Positions 642-45,336 of a DNA stretch of 45,715 nucleotides are shown here, piece after piece. Source of the stretch: a virus (Duplodnaviria; Caudoviricetes); the IMG/VR virus record IMGVR_UViG_3300036987_000023, positions 1 through 45,715 of that record; one strand, written 5' to 3'. The notes under the pieces were generated by a model, which saw only the letters and a list, made by a program, of their open reading frames with translations, ran no database searches and was not told the origin of the DNA. Made by a program: the position numbers and the translations under genes. How positions within the stretch are numbered: position 1 is the first letter of the stretch; each line of letters begins with the position of its first letter.

Positions 642-3041
642 ATGAAAAAGTATCTTGTATTTTTAGTATTATTGATAGTGATGGTTTTCCCTGTATCTGT
701 ATCTGCCGCTGGGTATTGTGGTGCATGGGGGATCAGCGGGACTAATCCATGGACGGTAACGTCTGATGCCGGTGGTACACCCAGTGCCGCACATACAGAC
801 GTACAAGCCTGTATTAGCAATGCGACAGTAACCGCCGGAAGCACCCTGAACATAACATACGCAGGTGGAGTTACATGGCCCGGATATGCTACATACATAC
901 CTGCCGCGAAACCGTTGTCTTTGATCGGCCCCGGCGCGTCAGTTTTAACAATAACAGCAACCGGCAACTGGGTTATAGAAACCGGAGCGCATACAGGCGC
1001 GGGTGGTGCGGCAGGGACAAGGGTCAGCGGCTTTAAATTCTTAAGTGCTCTAGATCAAAAACGCCAGATGATTATGTTTCGCGGAAAGAATAACCGCGTC
1101 GATCATTGCGTTTACGAGAGCATAATATCCACCAGCACGACAGGTACGCCGAATTTTGTCGGATTCTGGGGCGGGACTGGTGTGTCCGCGTCTGGCGTTG
1201 CGGATAATAATATTGTAATTAACGGCGGCATAACACAGGGCGGTCTTGGCGACTATGCTACCCAGCGAAATGTTTGGGCAGCGGATATCGTGCTAGGTGA
1301 TGAAAATCAGGTTTTCGTTGAAGATAATTATTTTTATTCGTCAACCGGAACCAGTGTAAAACAGGTATTGGATGCAACCAATGCGTCACGGAGTACCTAC
1401 AGGTACAATACTATTTATAACGGTTGGATTAATGTACACAGCATCCAGGATTCCCAATCGCGTGGTGTGCGGTCATCAGAAATATATGGCAACAAATCTC
1501 ACATATCGACCACCAATGAAGGTTACGGGCCGCTTGCTGGTTCCGGACTGATTTATGGAAATGATTTTGTATCTGCAACATATAATTCCAGTATTTCGTT
1601 CGGTAATAACAGGAGTGAGTGGGGGGACGCGGACGATTTCGGCTCTGCGCATAGATGCAACGGCGCATCTTTCTGGGATGGGAATACAGCGATTAACAAT
1701 GGGACAGGGACTCACACAGGCACAACATCATCGACCGTCCTAACAGATAGCACTAAATCGTGGACCACTAACGCCCTCATAGGCATGACCATAACGAATG
1801 AAACAAAGGGCGGCTTGACCGGCACACTGGCAGGGGCGGCTTGTATTATTACAGCGAATACCAGCACCAGCGCAACATGCTCAGCAGGTTTTTTTGATTC
1901 CTCAACGCTAGAAAACACTAATGAATATAAAATATCTGCTGGCTATCCCTGCCGTGATCAGATTGGCATGGGTACTGATGTGTCAACGTGGACAAGTTTT
2001 CCAACAGCTACAACTAAAGCTCCGAGCCAAGTATCTGCACCGGTATATGTATGGCAAAACTTTAATGATGCCTCATCCCTTATTACTGCGGGGGTGTTCT
2101 CTTCGACTTTAGGTGGAGTAATATTAGGTGGGCGTGATTTTCAAAATCATAACAATACGAATTGCGCTGCTGGTGGGGCAGCGTGTACGGCTGGCGTTGG
2201 ATGCGGAACCCTTGCCAATCGTCCAAGCTCTTGCACAACTGGCGTTGGATACTGGGCCACCAACCAAACTAATTGTGCCGATATTACGGGATATGCAGGA
2301 GCTTCGATTTGTGATTATGTTACAAACCCAAGCTGTACACCTGACAGGTCTGCATCAACTACCTATGCTGGCACACTTTACAAATGCACCTCAACCGATA
2401 CATGGGAAGAATACTTTACACCTTACGATTACCCACATCCCCTGCGTGGAGAAGTAGCCCCGCCCGATAGCACAGCCCCGCAAGTGTCATCCGTATCAGT
2501 CAACCCCGCAGGAACCTCCCTGACAATCACTTGCGATGAACCTGTAAACTTTGGCGCGGGTGGTAACGGCGGGTTTGTTCTTGACCCATCGGGCGCGGAC
2601 GTAACCTTGACCTACGCATCCGGCGCAGGAACGGCAAGCCTTGTCTATACTATCTCGCGGCCAATTTTACAGAGCGAAAACCTCACACTGGCCTACACGC
2701 AGCCCACGGCAGGGGTTGAGGACGTATCAGCATTAACCAATGATCTGGCTTCATTCACGGGTCGCAGCGTCGGAAATGGGTCAACATATACCGGCGAAGC
2801 AACGATCAGAACGCTGACACTGACCACAGGCACAGGGGTTTCGGGAATGTCAAACTACCCCACAGGAACCACGTTTGCGGATGGAACGGCGGTAACAGTG
2901 AGCGCCGCCTGCCATAACGGATGGCGAAACGCTGTTTACTCAGGTGACTGCAACGCGACAACGGGGAACGTAGCAATGTCTGCCAATCGGTCATGCTCGG
3001 CTACCTGCTCACAGACTCCCGTTTTAAATTGGGTGCAATAA
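642..3041 (+). CDS. Secreted-type Cys-rich adhesin/receptor-binding-like protein, allele A: beta-helix-like body, SwmB-like domain, InlB B-repeat-like C-terminus
   Basis: Signal peptide MKKYLVFLVLLIVMVFPVSVSA; beta-helix-like strands (RVSGFKF, RVDHCVY, VFVEDNYF, YRYNTIYN); DSTAPQVSSVSV...LTLAYTQP; TFADGTAVTVSA...YSGDC...MSANRSCSAT. Domain names are by-eye recognition. Confidence 0.75.
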   Translation: MKKYLVFLVLLIVMVFPVSVSAAGYCGAWGISGTNPWTVTSDAGGTPSAAHTDVQACISNATVTAGSTLNITYAGGVTWPGYATYIPAAKPLSLIGPGASVLTITATGNWVIETGAHTGAGGAAGTRVSGFKFLSALDQKRQMIMFRGKNNRVDHCVYESIISTSTTGTPNFVGFWGGTGVSASGVADNNIVINGGITQGGLGDYATQRNVWAADIVLGDENQVFVEDNYFYSSTGTSVKQVLDATNASRSTYRYNTIYNGWINVHSIQDSQSRGVRSSEIYGNKSHISTTNEGYGPLAGSGLIYGNDFVSATYNSSISFGNNRSEWGDADDFGSAHRCNGASFWDGNTAINNGTGTHTGTTSSTVLTDSTKSWTTNALIGMTITNETKGGLTGTLAGAACIITANTSTSATCSAGFFDSSTLENTNEYKISAGYPCRDQIGMGTDVSTWTSFPTATTKAPSQVSAPVYVWQNFNDASSLITAGVFSSTLGGVILGGRDFQNHNNTNCAAGGAACTAGVGCGTLANRPSSCTTGVGYWATNQTNCADITGYAGASICDYVTNPSCTPDRSASTTYAGTLYKCTSTDTWEEYFTPYDYPHPLRGEVAPPDSTAPQVSSVSVNPAGTSLTITCDEPVNFGAGGNGGFVLDPSGADVTLTYASGAGTASLVYTISRPILQSENLTLAYTQPTAGVEDVSALTNDLASFTGRSVGNGSTYTGEATIRTLTLTTGTGVSGMSNYPTGTTFADGTAVTVSAACHNGWRNAVYSGDCNATTGNVAMSANRSCSATCSQTPVLNWVQ

Positions 3042-4473: not shown

Positions 4474-4552
4474 GCATAGTACCCCCGACCGCCTCTGTTA
4501 GCCGCCGGAGATAGCATCTCAGGAAAAGACACGCGCACCAGCGGGGGTGCTT

Positions 4553-4798: not shown

Positions 4799-4983
4799 TC
4801 CTTCGCCTCCGCAGCTTTGCAGACGGCCTCACGCCAATAAGCTTTTTCTGCTCTGTCAAAATGCAGGTATCTACCAGTCATCAGGCATAAATTATCATTT
4901 CGACCTCCTCGTAGCTTGCAATACCCGCAATGCCCACCGTCGTCTGATACTTCAATCTTAACCTGTATCACCCTTTCTTGCAT
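4795..4983 (-). CDS. Small Cys-rich hypothetical protein (MQERVIQV...)
   Basis: GGAGG RBS before the ATG at 4983; CGYC motif. Confidence 0.65.
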   Translation of the reverse strand: MQERVIQVKIEVSDDGGHCGYCKLRGGRNDNLCLMTGRYLHFDRAEKAYWREAVCKAAEAKE

Positions 4984-5435
4984 ACGACCTCCTGATGGTA
5001 AGCGCGCAAAACAGAAACACAATCTTCACACGTCCCTGCCTCATAGGGACAATGGTACTCCATCTTCTCCATCGCCTCGACCGCCCTCTGCCACTTTGCG
5101 ACCTGCTCAGTCAAAACGCTAATCGCTTGTCTTACAACATCTTCCAACCTACCATTTTTATAGTCGTAGGCAGGAGAACATTGAGCGCACTGCAATTCAC
5201 CATCATCTCCATAAAGCCCTCTATGTCCGTGACCCACCCATAGCAACTTACGAATTGTCAGAACCTCTGCTTTCAGCCGGTCAATCTCGGCTTGCTGGGC
5301 ATCAATGCAATCCGCAGCTACCTGCATCTGATCATACGGTGCGCCATCGCAACCGCCTTGTCCTGCTAAACAGCGCAATACTGATTGAATAGGTTCTTCA
5401 CTGTTGTTGATACTTAATGGATTGACGATCTTCAT
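4968..5435 (-). CDS. Hypothetical early protein
   Basis: 155-aa ORF with AAGGAGGG RBS; coiled-coil and Cys motifs. Confidence 0.7.
   Translation of the reverse strand: MKIVNPLSINNSEEPIQSVLRCLAGQGGCDGAPYDQMQVAADCIDAQQAEIDRLKAEVLTIRKLLWVGHGHRGLYGDDGELQCAQCSPAYDYKNGRLEDVVRQAISVLTEQVAKWQRAVEAMEKMEYHCPYEAGTCEDCVSVLRAYHQEVVCKKG
4973..5004. repeat. 32-nt gene-junction repeat, copy 1
   Basis: ctttcttgcatacgacctcctgatggtaagcg, 30/32 identical to 6251..6282. Confidence 0.9.
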
Positions 5436-5514
5436 TTTCCCTCCTTGACTTTTCGGCTAAAGTTCGTAAAAAGTCGATCTGTATAACATAGCACTAACTA
5501 TGTTCTTTTCCGAC

Positions 5515-5838
5515 CTATCTGTCGGATCTACGCATTTCGTAGACATTAAAATTATGCCTATCATGCTTTTTACCTAGTTTATCAGCCAATGGCCCATATA
5601 TATGCCCATAACAACCATTCCCAGGAGGCGGTGCAAATATACCTAGTTTCCCCGGGGAATAGTTTGCAAGCCAGTAGCCTCTCCGAAGATAATCATTTAA
5701 TCTTTCCTCTGTAAGTTCCACCCCAAAAAGGAAAATACCTCCTCTTTTAACTCTTTCTTCATGTGATATGCAATCTTTTGCATTATCAAAAGTCTTGCCA
5801 TCAGCGGAAATATATTCTTTTGTTATTTTTTCTTCCAT
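5515..5838 (-). CDS. Hypothetical cassette-type protein
   Basis: 107 aa, GGAGG RBS, start lies just inside attC site 1. Confidence 0.75.
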   Translation of the reverse strand: MEEKITKEYISADGKTFDNAKDCISHEERVKRGGIFLFGVELTEERLNDYLRRGYWLANYSPGKLGIFAPPPGNGCYGHIYGPLADKLGKKHDRHNFNVYEMRRSDR

Positions 5839-5861: not shown

Positions 5862-5922
5862 AGACAACAAGAGCATTCAGCCGATCGTCGCTCCGCTCCT
5901 CCCGGTGAGCTTTGCGTTATGC
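5862..5922 (+). repeat. attC-like site 1 (partly degenerate)
   Basis: AGACAAC-aagag-CATTCAGC...GGTGAGC-tttgc-GTTATGC; right part 35/39 identical to site 6; L boxes pair poorly. Confidence 0.75.
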
Positions 5923-6261
5923 AGATAATGAATTTTCACTATCCTGCTGTCTGCTCCAACACCCACACGGATGCTGGAAATATCCACGCTGCTGCTCGTA
6001 AGTAAAGAGAGTAGCTTTTGTTAAGTCGGGCGGTTCTGTCATAAACCGTTCACATCCATCATGTCCTATTCCATGAGGAATACATTTAGCCATTCCACAA
6101 AAACATCGGTGATCATGGTTTATTCCATTTTTGAGTTTGCCTGCTATTTCTTCAATCAATTTCTGATTGATTGGCGCAACCTCACATTTCTTATCATACG
6201 GGTGATGCTTATGACATAGAGGACAAAAAATAATATTCGCTATTACGTCTCTTTCTTGCAT
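5917..6261 (-). CDS. Cys/His-rich hypothetical cassette protein
   Basis: CPLCHKHH, HRCFC, HPCGC; TAA stop overlaps GTTA of site 1. Confidence 0.75.
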   Translation of the reverse strand: MQERDVIANIIFCPLCHKHHPYDKKCEVAPINQKLIEEIAGKLKNGINHDHRCFCGMAKCIPHGIGHDGCERFMTEPPDLTKATLFTYEQQRGYFQHPCGCWSRQQDSENSLSA

Positions 6262-6476
6262 ACGGCCTCCTGCTGGTAAGCGTGGTCAATCGCTTCACGA
6301 ATACTTTTTTTCCATTCCTTCTTTTTGATAAAAAAGGCTGTGTCAATATCACCAGGGAATTTTTTGGGAATGCTTTGCATCCCAAATGTTGCAACTACCC
6401 AGTGACTATGGTCATCAGAGACTAAAGCCGAGCCATGCTGTTTTTCCAACCAATCAATTCTTTTTTTGTCGTTCAT
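6243..6476 (-). CDS. Hypothetical phage protein (MNDKKRIDWLEKQ...SIREAID)
   Basis: GGAGGA RBS at 6481..6486. The longer ORF-track start reads through an attC site and was not used. Confidence 0.75.
   Translation of the reverse strand: MNDKKRIDWLEKQHGSALVSDDHSHWVVATFGMQSIPKKFPGDIDTAFFIKKKEWKKSIREAIDHAYQQEAVCKKET
6251..6282. repeat. 32-nt gene-junction repeat, copy 2
   Basis: ctttcttgcatacggcctcctgctggtaagcg. Confidence 0.9.
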
Positions 6477-6496
6477 TATGTCCTCCGTTAATAATT

Positions 6497-6552
6497 GCCC
6501 AACAAGGGCAATCCAGCCGAGCGCTACGCTCCGGCTGATTTTTTCGTTGGAT
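6497..6552 (+). repeat. attC-like site 2
   Basis: GCCCAAC-aagggc-AATCCAGC...GCTGATT-ttttc-GTTGGAT; left L box equals the reverse complement of the right one plus one extra C. Confidence 0.88.
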
Positions 6553-6556
6553 TCGG

Positions 6557-6892
6557 CTACCAACTTACGGATTCTAATTTTACAAAGTCAGTAATTAAGA
6601 TTGGCTCTTTTTCATTTACAGCCACTGTTGTTTTATCGAGGTCTACTGTTATGATTTGTCTATCTCCGTCATGGACTTTTTGTGTGATTCCATATCCAGT
6701 TAAATCGTTCTCGTGCCCGCGAACCATGTCGCAAAATATTATGCGCGTGAGATATTGGAAGTCATCAATCCTGTCGGCTCCTCGTTTTAACGCCGCTTGT
6801 AAAACGCTCGGCAGTGCGTACCCATTCCAGTGTGTGTATAAACAGACTTGTTCATCCGATTCCTTTACTACTACGTTTGCTCTGTCTCCCAT
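6557..6892 (-). CDS. Hypothetical cassette protein (MGDRAN...LYTHWNG)
   Basis: AAGGAG RBS; fills cassette 6547..6983. Confidence 0.85.
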   Translation of the reverse strand: MGDRANVVVKESDEQVCLYTHWNGYALPSVLQAALKRGADRIDDFQYLTRIIFCDMVRGHENDLTGYGITQKVHDGDRQIITVDLDKTTVAVNEKEPILITDFVKLESVSW

Positions 6893-6925
6893 AGTAATCT
6901 CCTTAATTTATTTGTTTAAAAAAAA

Positions 6926-6989
6926 ATCCAACAAATCCATGCAGCCGACTCGCTCGCGTTGCTCGCTCACGCTGATGTCTGCGTTGGGC
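6926..6989 (+). repeat. attC-like site 3
   Basis: ATCCAAC-aaatc-CATGCAGC...GCTGATG-tctgc-GTTGGGC; extra base at position 4 of the left L box. Confidence 0.9.
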
Positions 6990-7205
6990 CTATATATTCC
7001 CGGCCACAATGTCATACGATGAACTGAATCCATCCGCGAGCGCACAAAATTCCATCGCGCGAATTTTATCGGTTTCATCATTCGTCCGAATAAAACTTAG
7101 GGCGTATTCGCCAGCTTTTTTTAAAGCATCGTTTTTCTTCTCCACCAAGATACGAAGAATCTTCCCTTTCGGTGTTTCAACATTGAGAGTAGTGTTGGTT
7201 TTCAT
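6990..7205 (-). CDS. Hypothetical cassette protein
   Basis: 71 aa, AAAGGA RBS, fills cassette 6984..7284. Confidence 0.75.
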   Translation of the reverse strand: MKTNTTLNVETPKGKILRILVEKKNDALKKAGEYALSFIRTNDETDKIRAMEFCALADGFSSSYDIVAGNI

Positions 7206-7235
7206 TTTAAATCCTTTCCGCGCAGCAAATAGATC

Positions 7236-7290
7236 GCCAAACCAGGCAATCCAGCCGAGCGCTACGCTCCGGCTGATTTTTTCGTTATAT
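7236..7290 (+). repeat. attC-like site 4
   Basis: GCCAAAC-caggc-AATCCAGC...GCTGATT-ttttc-GTTATAT; 42 nt identical to site 2. Confidence 0.9.
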
Positions 7291-7512
7291 TTTCACCAAA
7301 TTTGAAAATCTGGCATCCTTAAAAAAATCATCAACCGTTTTACACGGGAAAAACCAACGCGGCTTGCCACGCTTTTTTAAATAAGTGAACGAAACGCCCG
7401 GCAAGGCTCCGTCATATTCGGGATGTCCTGGAATTAAAACAGCATTGATTTTCACGGAAGGCGTTTTTTCATAGCCATTATATAATAATTTATCTCCGGC
7501 ATTTATTTCCAT
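7285..7512 (-). CDS. Hypothetical cassette protein
   Basis: 75 aa, AAAGGA RBS, stop overlaps GTTA of site 4. Confidence 0.8.
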   Translation of the reverse strand: MEINAGDKLLYNGYEKTPSVKINAVLIPGHPEYDGALPGVSFTYLKKRGKPRWFFPCKTVDDFFKDARFSNLVKI

Positions 7513-7535
7513 TTACTTAGTCCTTTCAAAACAAA

Positions 7536-7600
7536 ATATAACCTGTCGTTCCAGTCGATCACTACGCTTCGCTCCGTTCCGCCTGAGCTTGGCGTTAGCA
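7536..7600 (+). repeat. attC-like site 5
   Basis: ATATAAC-ctgtc-GTTCCAGT...CCTGAGC-ttggc-GTTAGCA. Confidence 0.88.
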
Positions 7601-7915
7601 CCAATACAGTGCAACTTTGCACCTATCATCAAGTTCTTTGACATAAGCACCTGTTGGCCCTGTGATTCCAACCGTCTTTAAATCCTTCGCCAGAACAAAG
7701 ACAACTCGTTCACCGTATGGATTTTCTATGGTCTTTCCATAGTGCGTATCTTCATATTTATCGTCTCGGCTTACGTACGAGGTAAAATTATCATCAACTT
7801 CCATAGCCGGAAGTGCTCTTATGGCATCGTGAAGGTCGTAATCTCTATTAACCTGCAAAACAGTGTGAGAGAAAAAACTTGCATCGTAAGGTAATAATAT
7901 TAAATCAACTCCCAT
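7595..7915 (-). CDS. Hypothetical cassette protein (MGVDLILLP...VALYWC)
   Basis: AAGGAG RBS, stop overlaps GTTA of site 5. Confidence 0.85.
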   Translation of the reverse strand: MGVDLILLPYDASFFSHTVLQVNRDYDLHDAIRALPAMEVDDNFTSYVSRDDKYEDTHYGKTIENPYGERVVFVLAKDLKTVGITGPTGAYVKELDDRCKVALYWC

Positions 7916-7941
7916 TTTACTTTCTCCTTTTTAAAAAAAAG

Positions 7942-8002
7942 TGCTAACAAATCGCTGCACCCGATCGTCGCTGCGCTCCTCCGCGTGAGCTTTTCGTTAC
8001 TT
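7942..8002 (+). repeat. attC-like site 6
   Basis: TGCTAAC-aaatc-GCTGCACC...CGTGAGC-ttttc-GTTACTT. Confidence 0.88.
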
Positions 8003-8584
8003 AATCCGACTGAATTCAATCACCCACACAAACGGGTTTGACCCCCACGGATATTTCTTGCCGTTGATTGACTCCCACAAATTAGAAAACGCTGCTTTGG
8101 CTGGTGTACCGCCCCATTTGTCAATGTATGGGCGTTTTTTATCAACTAATTCGTGGACGCCTTCCTTCCAGGCGTCATCTTCCGTTATCTCCTGCAACCT
8201 CTCAACTCTGACGCCTGTGACTTCCAGCGTTATCCTTGAGAAACGGCGAAACATGTGGATTGATGGATGCCATCGAGCGCCGGTGTGCTTCGGCAGGGGC
8301 GTACCGGATGCTTTATATATGATTGTTCCGTAATCTTCGCCACCAGCCCACGTCTCCCGCACCCATAGGTGATCGCCGGGTGTTCCGTAAGGACAATGTT
8401 TGACCATTTCCTTAGATAAATATGGCCGCAATCCTGCAATATGTTTCCATACCCATGTTTTGGCATCGCCGTGCGGATCAAACAAATATGGCTGGATTTT
8501 CACAATCCTCCGCGTCATCGTCTTGCGTCCGGCCAGTATCGCCTGAACCATCGGCGTGCTGAATAATATCGGTTTCTCGTTCAT
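7997..8584 (-). CDS. Conserved phage protein, ASCH/PUA-like
   Basis: MNEKPILFSTPMVQAILAGRKTMTRR...GDHLWVRETW...PSIHM...NPFVWVIEF family signature. Confidence 0.85.
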   Translation of the reverse strand: MNEKPILFSTPMVQAILAGRKTMTRRIVKIQPYLFDPHGDAKTWVWKHIAGLRPYLSKEMVKHCPYGTPGDHLWVRETWAGGEDYGTIIYKASGTPLPKHTGARWHPSIHMFRRFSRITLEVTGVRVERLQEITEDDAWKEGVHELVDKKRPYIDKWGGTPAKAAFSNLWESINGKKYPWGSNPFVWVIEFSRIK

Positions 8585-13736: not shown

Positions 13737-13766
13737 AGTATAATCCACTATGGACATGTTTGTCAA
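13737..13766 (-). promoter_or_regulatory. Leftward sigma70-type promoter
   Basis: TTGACA (13766..13761), 18-bp spacer, TATACT (13742..13737). Confidence 0.75.
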
Positions 13767-17622: not shown

Positions 17623-17774
17623 CCGTCTGGCCGGAAGCGAAACGGGTAGAAAAGCCCTGTGTTGTGTGTGGAGAGATTATGTTTTGCACACCAACGAGAG
17701 AATTATGTTCAAAATGCCGACGTAAAAAAGAAGTCGCATGGATGAGAAAAAGAGCGAAGGAGAGGAAGAAATGA
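17619..17774 (+). CDS. 51-aa zinc-finger protein (not in the ORF track)
   Basis: CVVC...CSKC; ATGA overlaps at both ends. Confidence 0.65.
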   Translation: MTVWPEAKRVEKPCVVCGEIMFCTPTRELCSKCRRKKEVAWMRKRAKERKK

Positions 17775-43263: not shown

Positions 43264-45336
43264 ATGAAAAAAATACTAGCCTTTATTTTGCTCTTTATCT
43301 TTTGCCCAGTGGTGGCATGGGCTGCCTGTACAAACAACGGTGATGGCACGTTTACCACAGGCGGGAACGAATCATCTGATGTTATGGACTGCATCAACCA
43401 CCCATCGCTTGTCGCTGGCAATACAATCAACGTTATAGCGGGGGATGAGGCAGCTACATGGGCCGCTGGGTCTGTTGTTGTTCCTTCAAATAAGCCGTTA
43501 AAGATCATGGGCCCTGGGAGAGATAACTTAACGATTATTCTTGGTGGCCATTATCCACTACAAATATCAACCGACGGTGCGACGCCCTATATCGGAACGG
43601 TGGAATTACCTGCAACACGGATCAGCGGATTTACCTTTCAAACTCCTACAGACGCAGGGTACGCAGCTATTCTTGCACGGGGGAAGGGCTGGCGGATCGA
43701 CAATTGCCGGTATCATAGCGTCAGAACGACAAATGCACAAACTGCCGCGTTTGTAAATGCTTATTCAATGAATCAGACTGCTGCGTATGTTTCTGTTGGT
43801 CTAATTGATAATAACATTATCATTAACGGGCATATTGATTCCGGAATGCTGGGGTCATTTACAGCCCTCTCAACCCCTTGGGCAGACCCGCTTGATTTGG
43901 GGACAGCAAATTTCGTGTATGTGGAAGACAACGTTTTCAATGCCGTCAACACTAATTATCAAATGTATCTAGATTCAAACGGCAGTGGCAAATATGTGTC
44001 ACGCTACAACACATTCAATGATGGTCGTAACCTTGTTCACAGCCTTCAGGATGATTGGCGTGGTTCGATTAGCTGGGAAATGTATGGGAATATTTTTAAC
44101 GCACTTACGAGCAACGTGGGAATCGCTCCACTTGCTGGAACTGGGGTTGTGTTTAATAACTACATGGCTGGGAGTGGCGGGACGAAAAATATCTCATTTG
44201 ACACAAATCGTTTATGGAAGTCAGTTGGTAGCCATGCTTTGAAATGTGATGGAACATCTGATTACGACGGAAATACAACTGTTACGCCTTCTGCCCCTGG
44301 ATACCCATGCCGCGACCAATTAGGACGAAGCACTGATTCCTTTTTATGGACAAGCGCAAGCGGCTCGTATGCTACTGTTTTCCCCGCACCAGTTCAGGAA
44401 TTAAAGCCTGCCTATCTTTGGAGCAACTACAGCACAACCACTCCCATTGTTCCAAACGTGAGCGTAGAAGCCACAAATTACATTGTAAACAATCGGGATT
44501 ATTACATCCAAAACGCTTCTTTTAACGGGACATCGGGTGTCGGCTGTGGAACGCTTGGTAACCGTCCGGCAACCTGCACAACAGGCGTTGGTTATTGGGC
44601 AACCAATCAATCCTGTTCGGACATGACAGGTATGGTCGGTGCGAACCCATCTACACCAATCGCAGGAACGCTTTATAAATGCACATCAACCAACACGTGG
44701 ACAGAATACTACACACCCTACGATTACCCGCATCCACTGAGGGGTGAGGTAGCCCCGCCTGATAGCACACCTCCGACAGTATCATCGGTATCCGTAAATG
44801 CCGCTGGAACTTCACTGACAATCACTTTTGACGAATCCGTGAACTTCGGCGCAGGCGGAAATGGAGGTTTTGTTCTTGACCCATCGGGTGCGGACGTAAC
44901 CTTGACATACGCATCCGGCGCAGGAACGGCAAGCCTTGTCTATACGATTTCACGGCCAATTTTGCAGAGCGAAACCATGACGCTGGCTTACACACAACCC
45001 ACTGCAGGCGTTGAGGACGTATCAGCATTAACCAATGATCTGGCATCATTTACCGGAAGAAGCGTCGGAAACCAATCAACACAGACCGGCGAAGCGACGA
45101 TCAGGACTTTGACACTGACCACAGGCACAGGGGTTGCCGGAATGTCGAACTACCCCACAGGAATTACGTTTGCAGACGGGACAGCGGTAACGGTATCAGC
45201 CGCTTGTCATAACGGATGGCGCAATGCTGTTTACTCAGGCGATTGTAACGCCTCAACCGGCAACGTAACCATGTCAGCAAATCGGTCGTGTTCGGCTACC
45301 TGCTCGCAGACGCCAACTTTAAACTGGGTGCAATAA
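43264..45336 (+). CDS. Secreted-type Cys-rich adhesin/receptor-binding-like protein, allele B
   Basis: MKKILAFILLFIFCPVVAWA; collinear with 642..3041 and near-identical to it from GTLYKCTST to the end. Confidence 0.78.
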   Translation: MKKILAFILLFIFCPVVAWAACTNNGDGTFTTGGNESSDVMDCINHPSLVAGNTINVIAGDEAATWAAGSVVVPSNKPLKIMGPGRDNLTIILGGHYPLQISTDGATPYIGTVELPATRISGFTFQTPTDAGYAAILARGKGWRIDNCRYHSVRTTNAQTAAFVNAYSMNQTAAYVSVGLIDNNIIINGHIDSGMLGSFTALSTPWADPLDLGTANFVYVEDNVFNAVNTNYQMYLDSNGSGKYVSRYNTFNDGRNLVHSLQDDWRGSISWEMYGNIFNALTSNVGIAPLAGTGVVFNNYMAGSGGTKNISFDTNRLWKSVGSHALKCDGTSDYDGNTTVTPSAPGYPCRDQLGRSTDSFLWTSASGSYATVFPAPVQELKPAYLWSNYSTTTPIVPNVSVEATNYIVNNRDYYIQNASFNGTSGVGCGTLGNRPATCTTGVGYWATNQSCSDMTGMVGANPSTPIAGTLYKCTSTNTWTEYYTPYDYPHPLRGEVAPPDSTPPTVSSVSVNAAGTSLTITFDESVNFGAGGNGGFVLDPSGADVTLTYASGAGTASLVYTISRPILQSETMTLAYTQPTAGVEDVSALTNDLASFTGRSVGNQSTQTGEATIRTLTLTTGTGVAGMSNYPTGITFADGTAVTVSAACHNGWRNAVYSGDCNASTGNVTMSANRSCSATCSQTPTLNWVQ

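Follow-up and report, generated by a model that had tools for sequence, protein, structure and literature searches.

The window analysed here is the whole 45,715-nucleotide stretch of a groundwater phage record (45.7 kb), which carries genes for a GP7-type capsid, a head-tail connector and a tubular tail and which we read as belonging to a podovirus. CheckV gives the record a completeness of 100%, and the sequence is linear, with end repeats absent. Between positions 5862 and 8002, six attC sites on the plus strand separate short genes that lie on the minus strand as part of a leftward operon. The features of the array and of its surroundings are as follows:

4535..4550, both strands: terminator-like hairpin, at the end of the leftward operon
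5485..5508, plus strand: candidate decayed attI-like primary site, a short inverted repeat with a terminal GTT at 5502; scoring gives no support
5515..5838, minus strand: probable first cassette, a 107-aa ORF starting 23 nt from site 1; no opening core identified
5862..5922, plus strand: attC site 1, 26.9 bits; its G|TTA is the stop codon of ORF 5917-6261
5917..6546, minus strand: two-gene unit of 630 bp with the overlapping ORFs 6243-6476 (77 aa) and 5917-6261 (114 aa); cores 5/7
6497..6552, plus strand: attC site 2, 56.9 bits; same type as Syntrophales cassette sites
6547..6983, minus strand: cassette of 437 bp with ORF 6557-6892 (111 aa, phrog_31860, function unknown); cores 7/7, 8-nt run
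6926..6989, plus strand: attC site 3, 24.6 bits
6984..7284, minus strand: cassette of 301 bp with ORF 6990-7205 (71 aa); cores 6/7
7236..7290, plus strand: attC site 4, 59.3 bits; its G|TTA is the stop codon of ORF 7285-7512
7285..7594, minus strand: cassette of 310 bp with ORF 7285-7512 (75 aa); cores 7/7, 10-nt run
7536..7600, plus strand: attC site 5, 16.9 bits; its G|TTA is the stop codon of ORF 7595-7915
7595..7996, minus strand: cassette of 402 bp with ORF 7595-7915 (106 aa, a mostly viral protein family); cores 7/7, 8-nt run
7942..8002, plus strand: attC site 6, closing the array on the right, 26.4 bits; its G|TTA is the stop codon of the flanking gene 7997-8584
7997..8584, minus strand: flanking phage gene (195 aa, phrog_874), with attC missing at its start
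13737..13766, minus strand: sigma-70-like promoter match (11/12, a consensus match only), heading the leftward operon

The profiles of tyrosine recombinases (PF00589), integron integrases (TIGR02249) and serine recombinases/resolvases (PF00239) found no match at E<=1 in the whole record, in searches that gave matches in control genomes; this bears out the earlier note, according to which no tyrosine recombinase is recognisable in this apparently complete genome. The record therefore lacks the recognisable intI gene of a complete integron, and the array, having at least two co-oriented attC sites and no intI nearby, has the composition of a CALIN. At opposite ends of the record, the paralogous large genes 642-3041 and 43264-45336 share a phrog_30287 / SWM-repeat region, which is possibly a pair of duplicated tail-fibre modules.

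The six sites are 55-65 nt long, and each is an imperfect R''-L''-L'-R' palindrome with the conserved AAC and GTT: an AAC core, a 5-6 nt spacer, an 8-nt L'' with an extra fourth base, a loop, a 7-nt L', a 5-nt spacer and a GTT core. The top strand of the aadA7 control has the same anatomy in the part of the supplement of PMC9892861 that was available. The L boxes of sites 1 to 6 contain 3, 0, 0, 0, 2 and 1 mismatches, respectively, and sites 2 and 4 are 84% identical over 64 nt. A profile HMM built from 57 bacterial sites matches the window exactly six times, at 16.9-59.3 bits, with the next best score at 3.6 bits and the best score among shuffled windows (n=30) at 8.2 bits. It is important to note that the 57 training sites were first located with a phage-seeded profile, so these matches speak for membership of a shared family rather than for an independent attC call. 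The claim of six palindromes with attC anatomy thus holds, and of the two checks proposed for it, the model search, in the form of this profile, recovered all six sites and the folding test favoured a minority: sites 2 and 4 folded better than shuffles (z -3.8 and -2.9), sites 3, 5 and 6 did not, and site 1 entered the test 5 nt short. The circle forms of three window sites have lower folding energy; folding alone is weak evidence for attC.

Other searches with the sites returned little. Rfam gave four matches in the window, every one under its gathering score; an exact search of IMG/VR for the body of sites 2 and 4 gave none, and a search with the motif of sites 1 and 6 gave four loci, none with an array. 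A hand-made anatomy scan was discarded as a site finder since it was unspecific, returning four of the six sites together with seven other places. Contigs from other sequencing runs, which may come from one sampling campaign, read through all six G|TT points, and no differences are listed for them, so the array is not an assembly artefact. In run X1, a 37-kb contig (record 6) with a depth equal to that of this phage has an attC of the site-4 type (matching 7248-7291) and may represent another phage with an array in that sample.

The five units delimited by these sites show the pairing expected from the earlier note, in which the core opening a unit agrees with the core closing it. The agreement is complete in units 6547-6983, 7285-7594 and 7595-7996, reaches six of seven positions in 6984-7284 and five of seven in the remaining unit, against only 3-5/7 between the two cores of any single site. 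That remaining unit, 5917-6546, is a fifth one absent from the earlier list, and it is likely a fused or remodelled unit. Its junction at 6251-6282 recurs outside the array, with 94% identity, as the gene junction 4973-5004. These two 32-nt copies connect different gene pairs and are a possible module boundary for homologous recombination; a weaker third copy lies at 4817-4842. The opening core of cassette 6547-6983 has its own 5-nt inverted copy 9 nt on (6547-6565), overlapping the stop codon.

On the flanks, the product of ORF 5515-5838 has four matches, itself among them. Since no attC lies at its start, gene 7997-8584 is either a resident gene or a former cassette whose site has disappeared. 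The GTT at 5502 was considered as the attI position and set aside as unsupported (rank 226 of 1590 GTT, core 5/7); an 8-nt motif of the 5485-5508 region is common to four phage left ends but is not rare. Our reading is that the primary site of the window phage is decayed or unrecognised. Excision was sought, as had been suggested, as sequence reading across excised circles, and no credible joint appeared in the contigs of eight runs, where contigs drop rare variants and X6-X8 contribute small shares. Candidate joints at 85-94% likeness were rejected because their sides of 22-42 nt lie within repeats, attC or others. In other runs there are two loose ends (5807 and 7476), both breaking inside gene starts, off G|TT.

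All five window units are inverted, with their genes on the minus strand against attC sites on the plus strand, so that the usual cassette arrangement, with the gene pointing to its attC on the top strand, occurs in none of them; on this point the earlier note was understated. The array genes are co-oriented with the leftward operon, and all have a purine-rich ribosome-binding site; the distance from a site to the start of its closest gene is 20-33 nt. At sites 1, 4, 5 and 6 the TTA of G|TTA is a stop codon, which at site 6 belongs to a common phage gene. The genes face the wrong way for a Pc promoter that reads cassettes from the attI side; the best promoter match on the strand of the array genes is the one at 13737-13766, from a promoter and terminator scan whose total counts were no higher than in shuffles. 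Given the inversion, transcription from a promoter of the phage itself, lying upstream, would run through the entire array, additions would come in at the distal end of the operon, and the G|TTA core would often double as a stop codon. Of 91 viral sites, 27 have a run of at least five T after the stem on the top strand and 8 have one on the bottom strand, so inverted genes would meet fewer terminator-like signals, and inversion may have been favoured since the message avoids the top-strand hairpin-plus-U-run. Another idea, that inversion places the bottom strand on the lagging-strand template (based on the part of PMC5371416 consulted), fits the window genome if the origin is near the initiator gene at 17738; it is not relied on because the array of a related phage, G159, sits on the other side of the initiator gene.

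Our study identified further arrays in viral records. A degenerate attC pattern led to 100 viral loci, 52 of the 128 loci scanned had profile matches, and the 32 loci with strong or multiple matches were taken on, corresponding to 31 records plus locus L337. With the window included, 30 of 33 records yielded 99 resolved sites, and another 12 matches stayed unresolved. The 67 viral units, window included, comprise 58 inverted, 7 forward and 2 without an ORF under a longest-ORF rule; 53 of the 62 units outside the window are inverted, as are most units in 19 of 23 viral records, and the forward ones include three in the provirus record G167 and one in G174. Viral units have a median length of 332 bp. 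Their opening and closing cores pair at 7/7 in 46 of 67 cases, compared with 4 of 67 for the cores of one site, and 29 of the 58 inverted genes end in G|TTA. Only G159 resembles the window phage across virion genes (capsid 54%), and its array sits elsewhere in the genome.

A tyrosine recombinase other than IntI is present in one of the 31 array-bearing records (G157); since only two of the 31 are at least 90% complete, the missing IntI is weak evidence. This enzyme scores 53.8 bits on TIGR02249, for which the cut-off is 265, and lies about 500 bp from the array; we read its position after a small gene as an excisionase-integrase layout. The record itself (L373:6345-9184) has an inverted array near the recombinase in a complete phage with terminal repeats. 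Several other records deserve mention in their own right. G160 (L376:57-4179) has twelve attC in a row with 11 inverted units and ends at the stop codon of a primase-like gene. In G170 (L383:1900-1960), one attC has A in place of the crossover G, and the adjacent cassette would be locked at that end. In G152 (L398:1253-2032), the gene whose stop codon is the last G|TTA resembles a replication initiator in our reading of its translation, with no Pfam match; genes that are probably essential can thus end in an attC core. One viral contig has three pattern matches of uniform style, spaced at 705 and 936 bp (L279-L281), which the attC profile left unscored and which are possibly another attC family.

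The comparison of related records shows whole units gained, lost and reordered at G|TT, which supports the cassette reading. G158 and G170 have backbones 90-97% identical on either side of the array and different cassettes, except for one shared cassette that is 98.5% identical from TT to the next G, attC body included, between unrelated neighbours. Cassettes are also swapped at G|TT between G177 and G180 (90.6% identity) and between L337 and G160 (88%), the latter with differing closing attC bodies. Other processes also reshape the sites, because the L337/G160 closing bodies differ and, over all sites, the attC body shows no clearly closer link to R'' than to R' (0.12 vs 0.09). The proposed check of the breakpoints in relatives succeeded for other phages and not for the window's own five units: no relative was found with one of the window phage's own cassettes at G|TT. 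In five related records (G158, G170, G175, G178 and G179), about 110 nt of non-coding sequence are held in common up to T|GTTAT and divergence begins right after it; at the last G|TT, three of these records come together again. Exact exchanges of units in other phages take place between this kind of conserved left site and a right-hand gene that is likewise conserved. Of the 13 distinct phage left ends with a 7/7 opening core, 12 carry T in front of the GTT; scored with a matrix derived from five bacterial attI candidates, every one of the 13 lies above the median. We read this conserved left site of related phages as a putative phage attI-like site.

The window cassette genes are small early genes, and their proteins belong to no Pfam or NCBIfam family (ORF 6243-6476 was scanned in Pfam inside a longer ORF). 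The families of ORFs 6557-6892 and 7595-7915 have 86 and 58 homologues, respectively, and the closest atlas clusters for which taxa are recorded are 85-100% viral. None of their members was found in 339 Syntrophales genomes, a search without a positive control. No attC was found with the final profile at any of 176 loci (122 of these two families and 54 of the flanking gene), a result that covers this attC family and would miss others. When four cargo proteins were compared by tblastn with cultured phages, only 6557-6892 matched, in four records; no viral locus was found for ORF 6243-6476, and the window cargo ORFs had no match in the array-bearing viral records. From those other records, 96 of 100 attC-adjacent ORFs were taken after dropping four overlapping alternates, and Pfam matched 16 of the 96, some being flanking genes; these comprise nine DNA methyltransferases, a single Tad2-like protein, a Lar-like protein slightly below the cut-off and five others. 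The Tad2-like anti-defence gene, in G156 (L370:11945-12187), is an inverted cassette with 7/7 cores. The phage-like nature of the cargo, unlike that of host cassettes, is the second point that the earlier note had understated, and the likely source of the cargo is a pool of phage cassettes, not host arrays.

In bacteria, a 27-nt piece of sites 2 and 4 has one exact occurrence in the species-genome collection, within a Syntrophaceae cassette array with forward genes. The phage-built attC model has matches in 96 of 151 Syntrophales genomes, and 48 of the 151 have an IntI above the cut-off. The site-2/4 motif was found in 28 of 121 genomes of the order Syntrophales and in 6 of 121 genomes of its phylum. 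This attC family forms arrays beside a divergent intI at L098, L248, L251, L254 and L257, and also at L096. Bacterial units with these sites are forward in 30 of 32 cases, with a median length of 787 bp, and a partly overlapping bacterial set has a forward gene at 44 of 51 sites. From the attC type, with a model scan that covered genomes of this order, the phage host is likely a member of Syntrophales; capsid relatives occur in only 2 of 339 Syntrophales genomes, at 43-46% identity.

Taken together, we consider it probable, with fairly high confidence, that the window contains an inverted integron cassette array in the leftward operon of a podovirus without a recognisable integrase, likely built and reshuffled by the IntI of a probable Syntrophales host. 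IntI is reported to act on the bottom strand of attC in its folded form, recombining it at G|TT with attI, and phage attC sites to recombine with attI1 via IntI1, in the portions of PMC5371416 and PMC9892861, respectively, on which we draw. We infer that the phage uses the host integrase, whose activity on the window sites is putative. During infection, host IntI would recombine the folded bottom strand at G|TT; units would be excised as circles and inserted at an attI-like site or at another attC. With the primary site at the distal end of the operon, new cassettes would be appended there and read from the phage promoter.

It is unlikely, though worth weighing, that the array is a relic in which IntI formerly placed the sites and present variation arises by homologous recombination of similar attC bodies and gene starts. 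Such a history would agree with the lack of a clear attI-like site in the window, the two window units with mismatched cores, the loose ends inside gene starts, the swapped attC body of L337/G160 and the array sequence being identical across runs; it fits poorly with the three window units that retain 8-10 nt of perfect core pairing and with the G158/G170 cassette, whose near identity and exact G|TT ends indicate recent activity in related phages. We regard as distinctly improbable that mobile cassettes are moved by another recombinase, from a helper phage or a short Xer-type enzyme, instead of host IntI. The tyrosine recombinase beside the G157 array is what suggests it; however, that enzyme falls far below the TIGR02249 cut-off and has an excisionase-integrase-like layout, no such enzyme occurs in the other 30 of 31 array-bearing records, and the window sites are of the type adjoining true intI genes.

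The capture of a host integron array as a block in one event is disfavoured and very improbable: the attC family is that of Syntrophales arrays and GC is 0.42 in the array against 0.48 in the genome, yet host units are forward and longer, the two tested gene families occur in viral contigs and in none of the 339 Syntrophales genomes (again without a positive control), and one unit repeats a phage gene junction. Hardly credible is a role of the repeats as regulatory hairpins, terminators or processing sites rather than recombination sites, for although site 6 is terminator-like on the plus strand, this is the non-coding strand, and hairpins leave the core pairing across genes and the exact swaps unexplained.

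As to how such cassettes arise, three of 15 viewed homologues of ORF 7595-7915 end in the same W-C-stop that forms the window core, and 29 of 46 viral units have cores that also pair at an eighth base (expected fraction 0.28); both observations would fit an attC site built to match the native end of a gene. It is possible, though we think it doubtful, that phages of anaerobes have their own integron branch, comprising a private pool of inverted short cassettes derived from ordinary genes of phages, an attI-like site carried by the phage and an integrase borrowed from the host, with cassettes built on the phage around the native stop codon. The available part of PMC4792948 (2016) states that no reliable model of cassette genesis was available. 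If the proposal is true, these arrays show gene cassettes being created and offer a direct handle on cassette genesis. Before-and-after pairs for its study exist, since some relatives of the cargo genes lack these sites.

Integrons are bacterial tools that have lately been seen as stores of anti-phage genes. The arrays described here indicate that phages exchange accessory genes of their own through integron sites, and likely by means of the same enzyme; in related phages these genes include likely counter-defence genes. Their consistent inversion sets phage cassettes apart from host ones and places expression under a phage promoter. No paper on inverted cassette arrays in phages was found in our literature search, with subscription journals largely outside it; phage CALINs are already published, and the inverted arrays are the new part within the literature found. 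The statement that attC sites in phages had been reported before is accordingly correct: Qi et al. 2023 (PMC9892861), in the sections available, describe 17 CALINs, with 2-4 sites each where counted, as attC clusters without intI in virulent phages with methyltransferase cargo, and five of six tested phage attC sites recombined with attI1. The TJE1 CALIN of that study has three annotated genes on the attC top strand, that is, forward, whereas the window genes are inverted, and those sections describe no inverted genes, inter-phage cassette swaps or attI-like site of a virulent phage.

The chromosomal integrons of Syntrophales (L098, L096, L059) share with the phage arrays the attC family, the G|TT crossover, an AT-rich stretch before the first GTT and core pairing within units (7/7 in 21 of 32), but they have intI, forward genes and longer units, where the phage arrays have short inverted phage genes and no intI. 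According to the part of bioRxiv 10.1101/2022.09.11.507474 consulted, IntI also inserts cassettes at GWT sites outside integrons (attG), a route by which a phage array could start; those insertions are scattered and in either orientation, without a conserved primary site with an inverted array. Anti-phage defence cassettes (bioRxiv 10.1101/2024.07.02.601686, as far as its accessible text goes) are likewise fast-turnover stores for the conflict between phage and host, with the difference that here the cassettes are on the phage side, where related arrays carry methyltransferases and a Tad2-like protein.
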